Positions 4,376 through 51,140 of a stretch of 51,140 bases of DNA are shown here, piece by piece. A model generated the notes under the pieces. That model saw only the letters and a program-made list of their open reading frames with translations, ran no database searches and had not been told where the DNA came from. Origin of the DNA: Catajapyx aquilonaris (Eukaryota); NCBI GenBank assembly GCA_000934665.2, contig KZ538727.1, positions 1 through 51,140 on the forward strand, in the 5' to 3' direction. The position numbers and the translations under genes are program-made. Each line of letters opens with the position of its first letter. The stretch's first letter is position 1.

Positions 4376-6407
4376 AAAATAACTGGCCCCTGAAGTAGCC
4401 CTGAACAATATGATCCGAATAATTTGAACTAATTTTTGCTCCCAGTTGACTCAAAATGACTGCGGCTATAACAGAAGAAATGGCAACGTGACTCTTTCGC
4501 AATAAGTGATATTTGCAGCGTTATAGTCTTCTTTCCTTTTTGTTCTAAAAGCATCCCCCAATTTTTCTGTGGGGGATTCTTCTTCTTCTTCTGTCTTTGC
4601 TGGGAGAGAATTTCTAGGGTGGAGCCCAGCAGGAGAGTCTAGGGGGAAGCGGACGATTTTGGTGGAATCAAGGCGTTCGTCAACACAATCAAGTGCCTGA
4701 CCGGAAAGGAGGCTTTTTCCTCCGGTCCTTCCTCTTTGAAGATGGGCAAAGAAACTGAAGGGAGAGGAGGAGGAGGGGGGGGGGGTTGCTCCTCTTAGCT
4801 GGCTCTCTCTTGGGAAGAGATTCAGCTGCAATAACAGTCGGCTGCAGGAAAGAGCTTAGTGGAGCCCACTGTCAGGCGCATCGCCACTTCTTTCCAGCAC
4901 GGGCCAACACCATTTCTACCCTACTCTTCTTCTTTCCCCCCTCCAAAAAACTGACTCTAGACCTCCCAAGATTTTCCGCCCCCACTGACTCTGCCAACAC
5001 TTTCCCCCCCGGGTACTCTAAGGCCTTCTAATTGCCTGAAAAAAAACCTGCCAGAGATTGAAATCGATGGTGAAGACTGACCGTCAAGGCATAACAATTA
5101 AGAGATATCGAAATTCCGCATAGTATCAGGCGTGTAATTAGATGTTGCCTAAATTCATGGGGTGTCTATATCAGCTTGATCTCACCCCCCACTTTTTTAT
5201 AGCATCATCTCCCCCCCCCCCCTTCCTCGTGGGAAAATGTAGCCAGTGGCATCCANGGGGGGGGGGGGTGAGTTTCCATACCGGATAAACAAGGCATGAA
5301 AACAAACCGTTTTTCGGGTGGGGTCCTGAAATTCTACAGTTCTCTCTCTCCTGGTGGCACAACCAATTTTCCCAACCAGTGACAAATCAATCAGAGTCAT
5401 CAAACTGTTCATAAACGACGCCTATTGTACTCTCTCAGTCCCTGGTCAGCCAATCACACGCGCCCACTGACAACAATGGTTCAAACCAGGCCAACCCTAA
5501 TTTCTGTGGCAAAAATTTGGCAACCTAGCGGGGTCTAAATGAGTCAAATGTCAAGACCCCCCCCCCACCCCACCCTGGAAGTCTTAAATAAAAAAGTTTT
5601 AAACAACACACTTGGAGCAAGACCACGCGATCATTAATCACTCCTAAAGAGCATTGCCCAACAAAAGAGGCCTCCAAATTTTTCCCTCTCTCTTTTCTTC
5701 ACTTTCCCCCCCTTTCTTCTGGCGGAGTTGCCAGTGACAGAACGTCCTTTAAGAGAAAAGAGAGGCCTATACGACGTCAAAGTGCAAGCAGAGTAAATAG
5801 CACAGGGTGGTGCAAGTTTCCAATAGAAATATGACTTATTTTCAATAGTTACTGCAACTGTTGAGCAATTACACTTCAATGAGAGTTGGTTGTTCCTTTT
5901 CTTTAAATCGGTTCTTGGTCAGTGCCCATGCTGCAAATCACTGCGGATTTTCAGAAAGGTCCATCCGAATGCCCGCAGTACTCCATCTTGCAAGACAGCG
6001 TTGATCTGCCGTCATTACAACTAACCTACCCAAGTATTGAGCGCTCCTTTCCGATTCATTTGACCACAACAATGCTATCCGCAAACACATTTTTTTTCCA
6101 TCGGAAGGAAGGGTCGTTAAGGTTGATGAGGACATTGGATGAACAATTGCTCCTTACAAATTACCCTTCAGAAATTTATGGGGAGAAAAAGAAAGTGAAA
6201 AATTTGTCCTGCCTTTGTTACTCGCTGGAGAGATTTTAAAAAAAGAGGATGATTGTCAACAGAGATGGTTATACAACAGGAGTTGTTTTAGTGATATATA
6301 TGAGGACACTCTTATTCCTAAACACGCAGGTTTTAGACAGGTTATTGCCCGTGTTATAAGAGCCGCGATTTCGTCGTTCGGAAGTACAATAGCGATTTGC
6401 TACTCAA

Positions 6408-6858
6408 ATAAGAGCTGCTATTTTAGTAGCAAATCGCTGCTACTTTCGAATGACTAAATCGCTGCTAGTTTTGCCTGTTATAAGAGCTGCTATTTTAGTA
6501 GCAAATAGCTGCTACTTTCGAATGATGAGATCGCTGCTAGTTTTGCCTGTTATAAGAACTGCTATTGTAGTATCAAATAGCTGCTACTTTCGAATGACGA
6601 AATCGCTGCTAGTTTTGCTTGTTATAAGAGCTGTTATTTTAGTAGCAAATAGCTGCTACTTTCGAATGACGAAATCGCTGCTAGTTTTGCCTGTTATAAG
6701 AGCTGCTATTTTAATAGCAAATCGCTCCTACTTTCGAATGACGAAATCGCTGCTAGTTTTGCCTGTTATAAGAGCTGCTATTTTAGTAGCAAATCGCTGC
6801 TACTTTCGAATGACGAAATAGCTGCTAGTTTTGCCTGTTATAAGTGCTGCTAGTTTTG
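6408..6858. repeat. 72-bp tandem repeat, ~6 copies, made of three GCTGCTA-containing subunits
   Basis: Visible periodicity; produces the 24-aa repeating ORF at 6450-6821. Confidence 0.95.
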
Positions 6859-16363: not shown

Positions 16364-16411
16364 GATCGCTGTCCAGCTGGGCCGACTGGTGGACATACGA
16401 TGGCATCTCTG
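16364..16411 (+). CDS. CA10: Internal 48-nt coding exon (phase 1-1) of a carbonic anhydrase-related protein (CA10/CA11-like, invertebrate CARP); flanking exons not found in window
   Basis: Acceptor ttttgtctctcgttgcag|G with branch-like CTGAT at 16338-16342 and donor CTG|gtgagt at 16412. Translation (G)SLSSWADWWTYDGIS(G) matches my recall of the invertebrate CARP motif SW(E/D)(E/D)WWTYDGISGPxFWG. Confidence 0.85.
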
Positions 16412-37130: not shown

Positions 37131-37699
37131 TTCACACATCCCGGCATTTTCATTTTTTTTTGCGCCAAGGTTTATCCAGTGAGTGACTCTGAACGGACTA
37201 GTTATATGGGAATAGCCTGTGTTTAAAGCAGGCGTCAGTTTTATGGCAGGGGTATTTACACTGTTTGCTTTGCAAATGTTTTAACTGAGCTGAAAAGGCC
37301 GTCGCGGGGAATAATTCCCTGGCGATGATGCCCTTTCATCACTCTATTCATTAGCAGCTCGTGGGGGGCGACTATCCTTAATTGATTACTTGCCTCCCGA
37401 CACAACTAAATAGCATTATTTTGGGACCCAAGCATCGTACTAGTCTCTCTTTACTGCCGTTGAGGGGGAGGCCGTTAAAAAAAAAGGCCAGTTTGATGGT
37501 CGAGAACGAAGAGTGCTAATTGGCTTGTATAGAAAAATTACGTCTGCTTGATGGCTGCAATTAGAGTCTTTTACTGGGGGCTAAAAATCAAATTGTTATG
37601 ACGCTACTGCTCATACTTGTTCTTTCCCGATAACATTTTCGGGACGTTCATCGCTTATTTATCCCCCTGTGTTATTGCACGTTATTGTCATTTTAGTCG

Positions 37700-38110
37700 C
37701 GATCAAAAATAGCTCTTTACAATAATATTATGGCTTTAGCGATCAACGTAGCTGCTAAAAATGTCAGTGTTATTTTAGGCGTGATCATAAATAACGCTGT
37801 ACAATTGTCATCATTTTTGTCACTAACACAGCTGCTACCTTATTTCTATTTTACCTGCAATCATAAATGGCGCTTTTCAATTGTGAAATATTTTTGCAAT
37901 CAACGTAGCTGCTCAAAGATTTTAAATGTTATTTTTAAGGCCTGATCATAAATAGCGCTGTGTGATTATTTTTATCAATAACATAGCTGCTATTCAAATT
38001 ACGTTATTTCTATTTTTAGCTGCGATCATAAATCGCGCTTAATACTGTTGCGACCATTTTTGTCACCAACATAACTGCTAGTATTAGTTGGAAAATCGCT
38101 AACTGCTCTT
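37700..38110. repeat. Degenerate tandem repeat (GATCATAAAT / TAGCTGCTA)
   Basis: Recurring motifs with loose periodicity. Confidence 0.65.
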
Positions 38111-38785: not shown

Positions 38786-39135
38786 TTGCCAACATGATGG
38801 TATGAGCTATGTTATTTTCTTGTGTATATCCCACATCAGAGGCTATCGATTTGGATGCTACCTACCAGCTTGCTAGTGGTTCTTGGGCTTCATTCGCGGT
38901 GTTTAACGAGCGGCATCAAAATTGCACCCCTGCCCGAATAAAATTGGCTGCAAGCTCCCCCCCCCCCCCCCCCCCCNNNNNNNNNNNNNNNNNNNNNNNN
39001 NNNNNNNCTCGAATGCACTGGACGCTTTATAACGGTTCATGCATGTCCGGTATGAACTCGTGGGCACTAGAGGTTCATTTTATATAGAAGTATCGTTTGG
39101 CCTCAGACTTGATTTTTTTCCCTTCAACAAACTGT

Positions 39136-39450
39136 ACATAATAGCAGTCCCTAATTTTTTTCCCCCCATCGTGAGCGGCGCCGGTGTTGATGGTGTTGTC
39201 ACCTGGCAACCGCGCCGCCTGCGGCAGGAAGAGGGCGAATTCAAACATCAACCCGTGATGGGCGCTTACAGCAACCTTGCCATTGTTGCCACTGTTTACA
39301 GCGGTAAGCGCCAATCACGGGCTGATGTATGAATTCGCCCTCTTCCTCCCGCCGCGCCGCGCCGGCGGCGCGGTTGCCAGGTGACAGCACCATCAACACC
39401 GGCGCCGCCCACGACGGAAGTATTAATGACTGCTATTATGTCCAACACTG
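39136..39450. mobile_element. GC-rich foldback MITE; right terminus ...GTCCAACACTG (CAGTGTT, hAT-like)
   Basis: Inverted arms over ~130 bp (ACATAATAGCAGTC..CGGCGCCGGTGTTGATGGTG..GAAGAGGGCGAATTCA and reverse complement). Confidence 0.8.
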
Positions 39451-39518
39451 TATTGTACTAAACCATTCAACCCTTACCTTACCTTACTTACCAACCAATC
39501 TTATGAAATAGACTATCA

Positions 39519-39581
39519 TACCGGGTGGTGCACTGTCCAAATCTTTCAATTCTTGAAACTGACGACTTGGAACACCCTGTA
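39519..39581. mobile_element. Short Tc1/mariner-type MITE remnant
   Basis: TACCGGGTG ... CACCCTGTA. Confidence 0.5.
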
Positions 39582-40183
39582 GACGGAAGAAGAGGGCAGC
39601 AAATCGAGATTGTTAGTCTGACCCCCCCCTCTAGCTTTTCACCGCTTTGCCCATTTGACATTCTCTTGCCAGGAAGAAGAGGGGGGGGNNNNGGGGGGAA
39701 AGAAAGAAAGTCTGTATTGTGGTCGGCGGAGCTTCAAATTGAATTCCAGCTGGACCCATCAAGACCGGTCAAGTAATCCGGAGACGAAGGACTCTTTTCT
39801 CTCTCTGTGTGTGTGTGTGTGTGTATATATCCCAGAGAGAGAAAGAGTCAACAAACATTCCCAGCAACACACTCTTGGACCCGCCACATCTTAACATTTC
39901 ATCTCGTTGCCAGGACACTCTTTTAGTACCGGAGACTGAAAGAGACGGAAAGAAAATAAAGAGAAAAGTGTGTGTGTGCACAGTACACTGAAGGGAAGCC
40001 AAAAATACGATTGTTGCGAATAACCATGGTTGCGACATTTACACAAACTGCATTTGATTATTGTGCCAGCAGTCGGAACATGCAAGCCAATTTCGACTAG
40101 CAGCTGCGAACCTTTTTTAAAAATCGTTGTACCCTGGCTGGAGGTGTTTACATTGTTGTAAGGCATACTGGTGACGGGCGAAG

Positions 40184-41167
40184 ATGTCGGGCGAAGATTT
40201 CATGTTCAATTCGAGCATGAAGAAAAAGAAGAAGAAGGTCCGCCCGTCTGTTCTGCTGGAGGAACCGGCCGAGGTCAAACCGGACCCGAAAGATGAGATC
40301 AAACCCGAACCTGTCACTCAGGACGAGGTAAAAGTGGATGACCCCGAAGAAAGTCATGATCACACAGAGGTCAATCCGCCGACTGAAAAAGTGGAGGAGA
40401 AGGAACCGTCCGTTGACGAACCATTCGACTTTGAAAGCTTCGGAAAGAAAAAGAAATCCAGAAAGGTGACTTGTTTTGTGTGTTGTCCGAAACATTATTT
40501 TTGACGTTTAACTCCCCCAATGAAGGTCAGGGTGAGCACCCATCAGGTAGCTCCGGCAGCTCCTGAGGCTCGTCCTGAGGCTCTTCCTGAGGTGTCTAAG
40601 GATACGAAGAAGGCAGATGGCGAAGAGGCGATTAGCAGCAGCGACGATGAAGACGACGAGCGTCACTCGTGGTCTTCATCTGACCGCGACTACACTTATG
40701 AGGAACTGTTGAGTCGCGCCGTGTCTGTCATGCGAAAGAACCCAGGGTTCGAAGCGGGTCGCAAGAAGCTGGTTATGCGACCTCCCCAGGTAGTGCGGGT
40801 AGGCACCAAGAAGACGGCTCTGACCAACTTCACCGACCTTTGCCGCGCCCTGCACCGTCAACCTCGACATCTGATGACCTTCTTTCTGGCCGAGCTGGGC
40901 ACCTGCGGGTCAATCGACGGCAATATGCATCTGGTGATCAAAGGAAGGTTCCAGCAGAAGCAGATCGAGAACGTGCTGCGTCGGTATGTCAAGGAGTACG
41001 TGACATGCCATACCTGCAGGTCATGCAACACCATCCTGCAGAAGGACACTCGACTCTTTTTCCTACAGTGCGAGGCATGCGGGTCAAGGTGCTCTGTCAC
41101 CACAATCAAGTCGGGCTTCCAGGCGCTGACTGGAAAGCGGGCCGCCATCAGGGCCAAAGCCACTTGA
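40184..41167 (+). CDS. EIF2S2: Eukaryotic translation initiation factor 2 subunit beta (divergent copy); join(40184..40465,40526..41167), ~307 aa
   Basis: MSGEDFMF start, lysine boxes KKKKKK and FGKKKKSRK, then [50 protein letters not shown]2-C2 zinc ribbon CHTC...CEAC and [17 protein letters not shown], all diagnostic of eIF2-beta. The two track ORFs are in the same frame and are joined by a GT-AG intron. Confidence 0.95.
40466..40525 (+). other. 60-nt phase-0 intron of the eIF2-beta gene (alternative in-frame acceptor at 40546 would give 81 nt)
   Basis: AAG|gtgact donor, T-rich body, branch-like ttgac/tttaac at 40501-40512, aag|GTC acceptor. Removal deletes the in-frame TGA at 40502-40504. 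Confidence 0.75.
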
Positions 41168-41244
41168 CTGTTCTTGTGTATGACCAAGATGTTGACAAAT
41201 TAAAACATGTTAAAGAAATATGTATGCCCGGGCATGTGTTATAT

Positions 41245-41250
41245 AATAAA
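41245..41250 (+). promoter_or_regulatory. Probable polyadenylation signal of eIF2-beta (AATAAA; variant ATTAAA at 41199-41204)
   Basis: AATAAA about 80 nt after the stop codon. Confidence 0.55.
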
Positions 41251-41981
41251 ATAGGTGGCCGGGCATGGGTGTCGACAAGAGAAATTCAAGCGCGACTTCT
41301 CCCTCTCTCTGATCTGGCTCTTCCCGTTTGGTTAGCATCCAAAGGCCTGGTAAGTTAAGGTGACATATGCTAATATCCAATCCGCCTTTGGTTATGCATG
41401 GGACGCTTTGGAGACATTACAAGCCCATCGGCATTGGAAGGAAGAGGAGTAGGAGGGGGTGAAAAAAACCCAGTTTTTTTTGCGCCCTCTTGGAGTTCTG
41501 TTCCAGGAGACTTCTTGTAAGATGTTGCCTCCTTTTCTCCCTTGGCCAACACGGAGCCTGGCGCGTGCTTAGATTAACCGAGGAACTAAAGGAAAGAAAG
41601 TTTGCGATATGTCCATCCATTTGTATCGGAGGGAGGTCCATTTATGGCTTTCTGGAAAACACACACACACATACACTCGCCCCCCCCCCCCCACTACTTT
41701 CTATTTGGGGGATATCGATTGGGGCAAGTTGAGGGGGGGACTAACTGACCTCCTATGTGCCTGGCCTGCGAATGACGCTTTATCCTCCACAATTGGCTCT
41801 GCTCAGGACTTGCAAGTCGATCCTTGCACTTTTTTTTCCAGAGGGGTTTTTTGGCTGTGGTTTAGGTGCCGTGAGTTGGAGAAGGGATGGCATTGCTGAA
41901 TTTTTATCATCCGTATAGAAAAAGTGCGTTTCAGTTCACATCCAGTCCAAAGAGGAGGATCGGAAAAGAGGCTTTATATTA

Positions 41982-42086
41982 TCTCCTATTATAAAAGGAA
42001 AAGTTTGTTTGCTCAGGTTTGGATTCCATGGCAATCTGTTACCATTAATATCAGTTTTGCTCAATTTTAGCGAAGGGTTTCACTAG
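41982..42086 (+). mobile_element. Non-autonomous Helitron, same family as 12081-12572
   Basis: A|TCTCCTATTATAAAAGGAAAAGTTTGTTTG...CCATGGCAA...CACTAG|T. Confidence 0.7.
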
Positions 42087-43176
42087 TATTTCACACACTA
42101 AAAGGCTTTCGTCATGTCGTGCCACTATAGAATTTTCTGAAGGATAAGATTGCGCTATCTACTGAATCCTTCCTAACTTCTATCGGACGTGACGTAGCAG
42201 TGAGTAACGAGCAAGTGAAGGATAGGCCCATAATAAATAACCTGGATAAACAAACAAACTTCGCCTAATATAATACTGCAGTAGAGATTTTGCTGCATTT
42301 GATTTGATATAAAAATTGTGATATCTTGCGGGAGAAGACGAGAGAATCGGGGCTATCTTTGCTTTGGCAGCGTAAGTTTTGTAAGCCGGCGAGTAAATCC
42401 GGTTCAACGGACCTTTTTTTTCTTTGAAGGTTTACGGGCTCGTTGAATGTAATTTTTGCGGGCGGTTTATAAAACGACGGATCTGGCGGGGGATCATCTC
42501 CCGCAGGATATGAATTTTATTTTTTCGACCCCCCGAGAAAAAAATGGTGGAGAGTTGAAGAGCCGTAAAAATGGTCGCAGATTCGAGTTGAAAAGTAGCA
42601 ATTCGGGTTCACGAAATGACGTGATAGCACAGGACTATCCCCACCAGCATGAAAATCCGTCACGTGATATTATTTTGATGGCCAGCGGCGCCAACTGGCC
42701 AAAGTTGGCATGCGAATACGCCTCAAATCAGGACCATTTCGGACCCCTTGGCCCTCCAAAAAAAAAAAAACTCCGGAGGAAAAAAAAGGCGGATTCGGTA
42801 ACCAAAGAGGCGGCCAGGGCGTGATTCTTCAGTGCTGGAAAGACTTGCTTAGTTGGCTCAATTGACTTAGGTGCCAGGCGATTTTAAGGGAAAAGGGGAG
42901 AGGGGGGGAGGGGGTCTAATGGCTGGCCATTTCCAAGGGGTTTGGTCTGTGAAGGGTAGGCCACCAGCACCCCGTTTACGAGCCTCTAATGGGCGCATTG
43001 GCCGGAAGAATAAAAGGAAAAAGAGAGGAAAGCCACGTCCTTTTATGGCCCTGCACGCATTGTACTATCGCCCACAAAAAGTGTGTAACATATTTAACCC
43101 TTGCAGTAGTGTCGGCATCACAGCGATGATTGTCAACAATATCGACAATATGTATATACTTGACGAAACGTCTACT

Positions 43177-44245
43177 TGTTACGTATACTGCTACGTTAAA
43201 AATGTTACGTATACTGCTACGTTAAAATGTTACGTATACTGCTACGTTAAAATGTTACGTATACTGCTACGTTAAAATGTTACGTATACTGCTACGTTAA
43301 AAATGTTACGTATACTGCTACGTTAAAAATGTTACGTTAAAAATGTTACGTATACTGCTACGTTAAAAATGTTACGTATACTGCTACGTTAAAAATGCTA
43401 CGTATATTTTATTTATGTTTTTTATTTTTTATTTCATACCTCGTGCTAGAGCCTTTGGCTCCCTTAGGGGGGTGGATTACCACCGTTGGATGGGACCAGG
43501 GAAAGGGAAGAAAGGAAGCGGCTGTGGCCTATTTTTACGGAAACGACCCCGGAATTGTCCTGGGGGGACCATGGAAAACCACAGAAAACCATGGTCAGGG
43601 TCGCTGGCCCCGGGATTCGAACCCAGGACCTCCCGATTAGCAGGCGGGCTCCTTATCCCCTACACCAACCTGCTTCGGTAAATGTTACGTATACTGCTAC
43701 GTTAAAAACGTTACGTATACTGTTACATATACTGTTACGTATACTGCTACGTTAACCATGTTACGTATACTGCTACGTTAACCATGTTACGTATACTGTT
43801 ACATATACTGTTACGTATACTGCTACGTTAACAAGGTTACGTATACTAATACGTTAACAATGTTACGTATACTGTTACGTATACTGTTACATAATGTACT
43901 GTTACGTATACTGTTACATAATGTACTGTTACGTATACTGCTACATTAACAATGTTACGGATACGGATAGGTTAACAATGTTACGTATACGGATAAGTAA
44001 ACAATGTTACGCATACTGTTACGTTACCATAGTTACGTATACTAACAATATTACGTATTGTATATTGCTACGTTAGTACGTTGACAATCTTACGTTTACT
44101 GTTACCACGTCTGCTGCTTGTGACGTCAAAATGATACATCTATTATATTACGTTAACAATGTTACGTCTACTTGTTACGTAAGCCATGTTACGTCTGAAG
44201 GTATTTGCACTTGTGACGTTAACAATGTTACGTCTAGTTAGACGT
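43177..44245. repeat. 25-26-bp tandem repeat TGTTACGTATACTGCTACGTTAAAA(A), interrupted by the SINE, degenerating rightwards
   Basis: Direct inspection. Confidence 0.95.
43407..43678 (-). mobile_element. tRNA-derived SINE inserted in a minisatellite
   Basis: Minus strand has A-box-like TGGTGTAGGGG, anticodon-loop-like CTGCTAA, B box GGTTCGAATCCC, a body with GGTTTTCTGTGGTTTTCC...GGCCACAGCCGCTTCC, and an A-rich tail. Confidence 0.85.
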
Positions 44246-49919: not shown

Positions 49920-50703
49920 TACGTAGATATACAGTAGTGTTCGGGTCCATAGCCAGCTACTCGGTGCATTGATTTCTAACTGCGACCTGCTTGTGGGCTG
50001 CGGAATCCGAACGGATGGATGCATACCCAGGCAGCATGGGCTTGCTTGTATCAGCCTCTCTTTGGAGCAGCAGCAGCAGCAGATTTCTAATTTGCATCAG
50101 CGCACGTGTTACTTCTCCGTACAAGCCCCAGCGCCAAATCCTTTAAGAGGAGAGAGAGAGAAGAAGCCTTGCGACATTTGGTTGGACCCGTCGGTCCGGA
50201 AATGTCTGTCTAAGCAGCAGGCTAGCTAGCGGCAAAAGGGGCCACACAGTGTCTCTCAAAGGGCGGCATTTCCCTTTGGCCAGTCTGACGTGCCGCTGCC
50301 CAAATCCCATGTGAAAAGAGAGGACTAGGGCTATTTAGAGAGAGAAGGGAACGAAGAGGGGAGAGGGGGAGGATGATATCGTTTCCAATCATGCGGCCTC
50401 CATTCAAACAAGTGCAATCCTAAATAGTCTTCTGAGCTGCTCAAAGACTCTCTATCTCTCTAGTAGGGTATGGCTCCAGGGAGGAAGTGGACTGGCATAA
50501 TGGGGGCCGCAGGAATCGCCAGACCCATCCAACTCCTGAAACTCGCATTGGAATGTGGCAGCAGGAACTAGTTGGCCCGACGAATATATCAGCTGCTTTA
50601 TCACTGTTGAAGAAGCCTGCAATTGCCAATAATCGTAAATTCAGAACGTCACTCGGTATTCAATTTTGCATATTATAACATATTATATTGCATATTATAT
50701 TCC

Positions 50704-51140
50704 ATGGTTACGCCTGGAACCTGCTGCGAGTGCCTGACCTTCGCTCCAGTTATTTTCCTTTTTGGTCGAGAAGAGATGATCGGGAGAACCGCAAGTCATA
50801 CTAATTTAAGTTCAGTTTCTCTCCTAGATTCTGGGAATGTTCGAAGTTTGGGGGTAGGTGGGGTGGGTAGTAAGAAAAGACTAAAAAACTCGGAGGTTCG
50901 ACTTTCCATTGTTAATGTAAGAGGGATTCATAATAAGTGTGATATTGTTAGGAAAGCATTTGTTGATGCTCGTTTAGATATAATGTGTTTGTCTGAGACC
51001 AAGATGAAGGGGTGTTCAGTGGGTGATTTCAATGGGCTAACATGTTTCTGGTCCGGTGTAGATGAAAGGGAGAGGGCTTGTGCAGGTGTTGGTATACTTA
51101 TAAGTCCTAAGCTGGTGCACTGTGTGAAAGGATATAGTCA
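50704..51140 (+). mobile_element. 5' part of a non-LTR retrotransposon (RTE-like LINE), APE endonuclease N-terminus; ORF runs off window
   Basis: Open frame (ATG at 50704 or 50776) reads ...RLSIVNVRGIHNK...LDIMCLSETKMKG...FWSGVDERERACAGVGILISPKL..., with APE motifs NVRG, DIxCLSETK and SGV...GVG. Confidence 0.88.

Follow-up and report, generated by a model that had tools for sequence, protein, structure and literature searches.

The eIF2-beta proteins of animals, represented here by human EIF2S2 and by those of Apis, Sipha and Harmonia, share a common architecture that combines a K-box tail at the N-terminus with a central helix for gamma binding, a core of the alpha/beta type and a C2-C2 zinc ribbon. 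The human gene is divided into 9 exons. Outside the animals, a homologous core domain and zinc ribbon are present in yeast SUI3 and in archaeal aIF2-beta, the latter without the K-box tail, and the N-terminal domain of eIF5 belongs to the same Pfam family (PF01873), a zinc-ribbon fold family. Among the animals, the tardigrade Hypsibius exemplaris carries a fast-evolving single-copy eIF2-beta in which the third K-box is weakened.

Here, we describe an eIF2-beta gene of the eukaryote Catajapyx aquilonaris, located on contig KZ538727.1 of assembly GCA_000934665.2 within a stretch of 51,140 nucleotides, which is called the window below. Over the conserved 80% of the Catajapyx protein, insect eIF2-beta is 72-76% identical to it. 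Compared with animal eIF2-beta in general, the Catajapyx protein has a degenerate third K-box and two single-residue deletions, and its gene has one intron of 60 nt. The similarity to yeast SUI3 was much lower (E=3.8e-46), and archaeal chains (129-148 residues; E about 2e-20 to 2e-26) matched the Catajapyx query only from about residue 46-58. The likeness to the eIF5 N-terminal domain was far weaker still (E about 1e-9), and the Catajapyx protein, in contrast to eIF5, has the N-terminal and C-terminal tails specific to eIF2-beta. The protein clearly belongs to the metazoan type in a tree (see below). The reading that we favour, with a probability of roughly 0.55, is that the gene is an ordinary eIF2-beta orthologue, although one that evolves fast, in a poorly sampled and probably arthropod-like protostome lineage.

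Gene structure and family identity

Reading of the frames revealed a complete two-exon gene on the + strand, with 307 joined codons and no internal stop (Table 1). The start ATG at 40184 is the first in-frame ATG past the stop at 40172-40174 and has an A at -3, and the N-terminus encoded by exon 1 can be aligned with the N-termini of insect eIF2-beta. The 60-nt intron is needed for the open frame because the unspliced exon-1 frame meets a stop at 40502-40504; its splicing is predicted from the frame and from the GT-AG borders. Use of an alternative in-frame acceptor at 40546/40547 would be predicted to yield a product 7 aa shorter. An intact eIF2-beta of about 307 aa with one 60-nt intron and its own AATAAA had been reported in the first-pass annotation, and all of these points were borne out (307 codons, intron at 40466-40525, AATAAA at 41245-41250). 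Upstream, no ATG occurs between the pyrimidine run and the start codon at 40184, and we take this run, by analogy with translation-factor promoters, to be a possible TCT/TOP-like initiator. The GC content is 0.55 in the coding sequence, with a GC3 of 0.66, compared with 0.38 in the intron and 0.44 in the whole window; the composition of the CDS is that of selected coding sequence.

Table 1. Features of the Catajapyx eIF2-beta gene and of the candidate upstream exon, in positions of the window
Feature	Position	Strand	Description
Candidate internal exon	16364-16411	+	48 nt; splice borders ttgcag/G...G/gtgagt; pyrimidine tract
Pyrimidine run CCTTTTTT	40111..40118	+	66-73 nt 5' of the ATG
Exon 1, coding part	40184..40465	+	94 codons; N-terminal tail with K-box 1 and K-box 2
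K-box 1	40220-40237	+	residues 13-18
K-box 2	40445-40465	+	residues 88-94
Single intron	40466..40525	+	60 nt, GT-AG, phase 0; immediately 3' of K-box 2
Exon 2, coding part	40526..41167	+	213 codons and TGA (41165-41167)
12-nt tandem repeat	40561..40592	+	2.7 copies; within the CDS, in the spacer preceding the place of K-box 3
Degenerate K-box 3	40595..40624	+	by alignment; 3 lysines only
eIF-5_eIF-2B domain (PF01873)	40760..41089	+	exon-2 ORF residues 79-188
C2-C2 zinc-binding cysteines	41006-41080	+	within the PF01873 domain
Poly(A) signals	41199..41250	+	ATTAAA 41199-41204; AATAAA 41245-41250

Exon 2 matched the Pfam profile PF01873 with 132.4 bits (cut-off 27; E=9e-39) over profile positions 8-117 of 117, and the PDB chains of human EIF2S2 (e.g., 6k71/6ybv) matched the protein at E=4.7e-83. 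A collection of 5.8 billion proteins yielded 5229 candidates, of which 4668 proved to be homologous; the top 120 of these 4668 had 68-76% identity, and all the named ones among these 120 were insect eIF2 subunit beta. The joined 307-aa protein is colinear with insect eIF2-beta over its full length, beginning with the first Met and including the C-terminal tail, and the residues of this tail and of the zinc ribbon are nearest to arthropod sequences. In a 10-sequence alignment, C161, C164, C182 and C185 (exon-2 ORF numbering) occupy invariant columns, as do Y56, Y58 and L61 of the Y-x-Y-x-E-L-L segment, whose E60 and L62 are nearly invariant. This segment is presumably the central helix that binds eIF2-gamma, a role that we carry over from work in yeast. 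Because the PF01873 score, the EIF2S2 match, the set of homologues, the alignment and the invariant motifs all agree, the identification as eIF2-beta can be regarded as secure and beyond chance.

Divergence, tree position and K-boxes

Core identity, measured over 161 residues from the D-R-D-Y-T-Y segment to the end, was 75-77% between the Catajapyx protein and seven insects together with one unnamed insect-like row, and fell to 74% for a tick, 72% for an annelid, 68% for the tardigrade and 60% for Monosiga. The insects themselves had 85-89% identity to the tick, 82-85% to the annelid, 76-79% to the tardigrade and 65-67% to Monosiga. From these values, the Catajapyx protein has diverged by about 10 points more than those bilaterian orthologues that evolve slowly, and about as far as the tardigrade gene. 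The eIF2-beta of Hypsibius exemplaris, with its 76-79% identity to insects (75-77% for the Catajapyx protein), its weakened third K-box and its similar branch length, is thus a comparable case and no close relative, since the core identity of the two proteins is 68%. Conserved stretches of the Catajapyx protein contain two one-residue deletions, and about 20 substitutions occur where insects and human agree. The description of the protein as divergent in the first-pass annotation is therefore right in part, with regard to core identity (about 10 points low), the degenerate K3 and the two deletions. The zinc finger has been retained, as have two K-boxes and the Y-x-Y-x-E-L-L segment.

No protein with more than 77% core identity to the Catajapyx protein was found in the 5.8-billion collection. 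The best full-length match in a library of 1.84 billion representatives reached 73%, and the best of 307 metagenome and metatranscriptome relatives 74%; the metagenome scan for close relatives yielded 80 loci, 68 of which were single-ORF, cDNA-like contigs, and these loci provided no sister sequence and no usable intron positions. Because the best matches lie at 73-77%, no sister-species orthologue is available among them to confirm the standard copy of the lineage.

A quick maximum-likelihood tree of 43 rows, from which representatives outside 250-420 aa or numbered beyond P0170 and most of the 120 insect hits were omitted, placed the Catajapyx protein within the metazoan clade (SH-aLRT 99) and gave it no resolved sister. 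Its end branch had a length of 0.97, compared with a median of 0.64, 0.92 for the tardigrade, 1.23 for a spider and 0.06-0.24 for the insects, and is within the range of the other animal rows.

K-boxes were scored as at least 6 K/R in 8 residues, and were counted in sequences of 280-420 aa with an M start and a P-P-Q-V/I motif at or past position 120. By this measure, the Catajapyx protein has two K-boxes rather than the canonical three. The K3 position holds only 3 lysines in the Catajapyx protein, while a K/R-rich stretch is present there in 18/18 aligned homologues, the choanoflagellate included. Among the close hits in the 5.8-billion collection, three K-boxes were counted in 113/115 and two in 2/115. 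Of 37 diverse representatives, 19 had three K-boxes, 14 had two, 3 had one and 1 had four, and 68 metatranscriptome ORFs had three in 53 cases, four in 8, two in 6 and one in 1. According to these counts, the loss of a K-box is unusual among arthropod-like sequences, yet it has precedent. The 12-nt tandem repeat sits just 5' of the degenerate K3 place. In structural work of 2025 (PMC12439599), each K-box is shown to dock eIF5, eIF2B-epsilon and 5MP1 independently, and K3 is reported there as the least conserved box in kinetoplastids.

Origin of the gene and its surroundings

The strongest competitor of the favoured reading, possible although clearly less probable, is a lineage-specific paralogue: an older duplicate that evolves faster, has lost K-box 3 and serves a specialised eIF2 complex (e.g., in the germline or under stress), which would offer fewer docking sites for eIF5, eIF2B and 5MP. 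Retroposition could have produced such a copy, and so could recombination with a partial cDNA or a DNA duplication after which introns were lost. A rate above that of slow-evolving orthologues, the degenerate K3 and the two small deletions are consistent with this origin, as is the absence of any near-identical or close protein from very large collections that include transcriptome-derived proteins. However, ordinary single-copy genes reach a comparable branch length in lineages that evolve fast, for example in the tardigrade, and the raised divergence and the lost K3 would fit a paralogue and a fast-evolving orthologue equally. Strong codon bias and complete signals also argue against the paralogue, and to our knowledge most animals have a single eIF2-beta. 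None of the papers listed in a literature search on eIF2-beta paralogs and retrogenes dealt with eIF2-beta duplicates, a result that carries no claim of absence.

A retrocopy is expected to have no introns in the copied part, and the Catajapyx gene has a 60-nt GT-AG intron that its open frame requires. No run of at least 8 A occurs in 41161-42200, i.e., the poly(A) signals are not followed by an A-tail. The direct repeats flanking the gene included no convincing target-site duplication; they comprised a 16-nt low-complexity match 340 nt past the AATAAA and another of 20 nt and 80% likeness, whose start lies within the 3' UTR. The absence of both the A-tail and the target-site duplication speaks against the paralogue, although an old retroposition could have lost them. 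The stretch is represented in four DNA runs of one sample, which may be the source of the assembly, and the contigs of three of these runs were searched at a threshold of 80% likeness. A further run of unspecified kind yielded nothing on 39100-43100, which counts neither for nor against a second copy. One contig per run spans 39693-43100 with at most 2 differing letters in 3/3 DNA runs, and at this threshold every bin over the gene has the depth of that single contig. A second copy, whether parent or sister, with a DNA likeness of 80% or more is absent from these contigs, as is a joined form that lacks the intron. The single-contig depth and the lack of an intron-removing joint indicate that the contigs hold no close or processed copy, within the reach of a test that a parent gene of less than 80% DNA identity would escape. 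Taken together, these indirect tests gave no positive sign of retroposition and lent no positive support to the idea of a duplicate.

The position of the intron bears on both readings. cDNA-mediated intron loss is 3'-biased and leaves a lone intron in the 5' third of the CDS, where the single intron of the Catajapyx gene lies. This is the pattern expected of a duplicate after such removal, but 3'-biased loss can also take place in the original gene. The 60-nt length suggests a genome with ordinarily short introns, and a housekeeping gene with one intron would be unremarkable there because the ordinary introns of the genome would be short. Under the favoured reading of an ordinary orthologue, the lineage would be fairly fast-evolving, with short (about 60 nt) introns and compact housekeeping genes, and the other introns would have been lost in place. 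The gene is most likely the organism's own orthologous, and possibly its only, eIF2-beta.

The window around the gene is poor in genes by our Pfam ORF scan. Apart from eIF2-beta, no scanned ORF on either strand reached the Pfam cut-off, and only weak sub-threshold chance hits were obtained; an Rfam search of the window found 0 families. CpG observed/expected is about 0.8 over the window (0.5-1.2 per 2 kb), which represents little depletion. On the 5' side, an open frame of a repeated unit of about 23 residues, seen by eye at 6393-6818 (+) and with no meaningful Pfam match, probably reflects translation across a minisatellite. About five copies of a repeat unit of about 80 nt occupy 37690-38085, and a short dispersed repeat lies at 39130-39300, where up to 8 contigs per DNA run aligned at 80-95% likeness; the mean depth per 134-nt bin was 95-145, about 5x that of the unique flank, and the local depth reached 170-247. 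The region 0.5-1.2 kb 5' of the gene is not fully assembled because assembly N runs are present at 38977-39007 and 39689-39692. On the 3' side, 43177-44196 contains about 1 kb of satellite-like tandem repeats in two blocks, with a unit of about 26 nt and further scores at periods of 12, 25-27, 40, 66, 76 and 118. Between these blocks, ARAGORN called a 72-nt tRNA-Ser(GCT) on the - strand (43602-43673). Nuclear tRNA-Ser are usually longer than 72 nt, so that the call may be false or may mark a pseudo-tRNA or part of a SINE. A 176-aa open frame that runs off the window end (50611-51138, +) reads by eye as the start of a LINE ORF2 endonuclease, and it had no Pfam match at E≤10 and none among the longer proteins of the 5.8-billion collection.

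A further reading, which we consider doubtful and which applies whatever the orthology of the gene, places it in an intron of at least 34.7 kb of a carbonic-anhydrase-related (CARP-like) gene of the same orientation, in which case its poly(A) signals could compete with host splicing. The first-pass annotation had placed a CARP exon about 24 kb upstream. Only one candidate was found near that distance, the small exon at 16364-16411, which lies 23.8 kb 5' of the eIF2-beta gene and is probably the exon that was meant. Its pyrimidine tract, cag/G acceptor and G/gtgagt donor are in favour of an exon, and a W-W-x-Y-x4-G pattern is contained in its 15 full codons. We take this peptide to resemble the start of alpha-carbonic-anhydrase domains, and the candidate presumably ends where alpha-carbonic-anhydrase genes have their first coding intron. 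The pattern occurs once on the + strand of the window, which adds to the case, but by our own estimate about 0.4 occurrences are expected by chance in the three + frames. The candidate ORF also had no Pfam match and no PDB match at E≤10, and 0/11 word-sharing candidates reached E≤10 in the 5.8-billion collection.

Evidence of a host gene elsewhere in the window was likewise sought. The carbonic anhydrase family PF00194 was matched by 0/257 + strand ORFs of at least 48 aa in the window, by 0/191 ORFs of 30-47 aa on the + strand between 16.4 kb and the window end, and by 0/142 - strand ORFs of at least 62 aa in the window; short exons can escape a scan of this scope. Searches of the window with motif patterns of carbonic-anhydrase, ankyrin, RING and SAP domains were unproductive. 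The first-pass annotation had also pointed to the next CARP exon beyond 41250 as a check, and no host exon was detected 3' of the eIF2-beta gene up to the window end (41.2-51.1 kb). A nested gene has host exons on either side, and what was found is one unsupported candidate on the 5' side and none on the 3' side; no test lent support to nesting in a CARP intron. The absence of a carbonic-anhydrase-like exon between the candidate and the window end can also be read in favour of nesting, given that a host intron would then span eIF2-beta: if 16364-16411 were a real CARP exon, which is doubtful, its downstream intron would have to pass the window end and would contain the gene.

The combination of both alternatives is improbable: a two-K-box paralogue that arose through recombination with a partial cDNA or through an old retroposition and that lies, on the same strand, in an intron of more than 35 kb of a CARP-like neuronal gene. 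The least credible explanation, a non-functional or decaying copy that is still open by chance, could draw on the lost K-box 3 and on the 12-nt repeat expanded inside the CDS, but it is very hard to reconcile with 307 codons free of stops and frameshifts despite more than 23% core divergence from every known sequence, with the retention of all invariant zinc- and gamma-binding residues, with a GC3 of 0.66 and with intact splice and poly(A) signals.

Implications for eIF2-beta in Catajapyx

From its sequence, we infer the expression, function and orthology of the gene, and its product is predicted to form the eIF2 heterotrimer and to support initiation. The Catajapyx protein would join eIF2-gamma through the conserved central helix, the C-terminal zinc-binding domain would contact gamma and Met-tRNAi, and recruitment of eIF5, eIF2B-epsilon and 5MP would fall to the lysine boxes, of which it has two where three are canonical. 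At present, the finding amounts to routine annotation: the gene encodes a translation factor with a housekeeping role, and the genome is that of an invertebrate without annotation. It is mildly interesting that K-box 3 has been lost naturally, given that K-boxes are shown to be independent docking sites in the structural work (PMC12439599). If the improbable combination of a two-K-box paralogue nested in a CARP-like gene were true, fewer docking sites for eIF5, eIF2B-epsilon and 5MP would imply altered start-codon stringency or altered sensitivity to the integrated stress response, while the housekeeping role would rest with a canonical copy that has three K-boxes. Should a second, canonical eIF2-beta exist in the same genome, the gene described here would be a rare specialised eIF2-beta paralogue in an animal.
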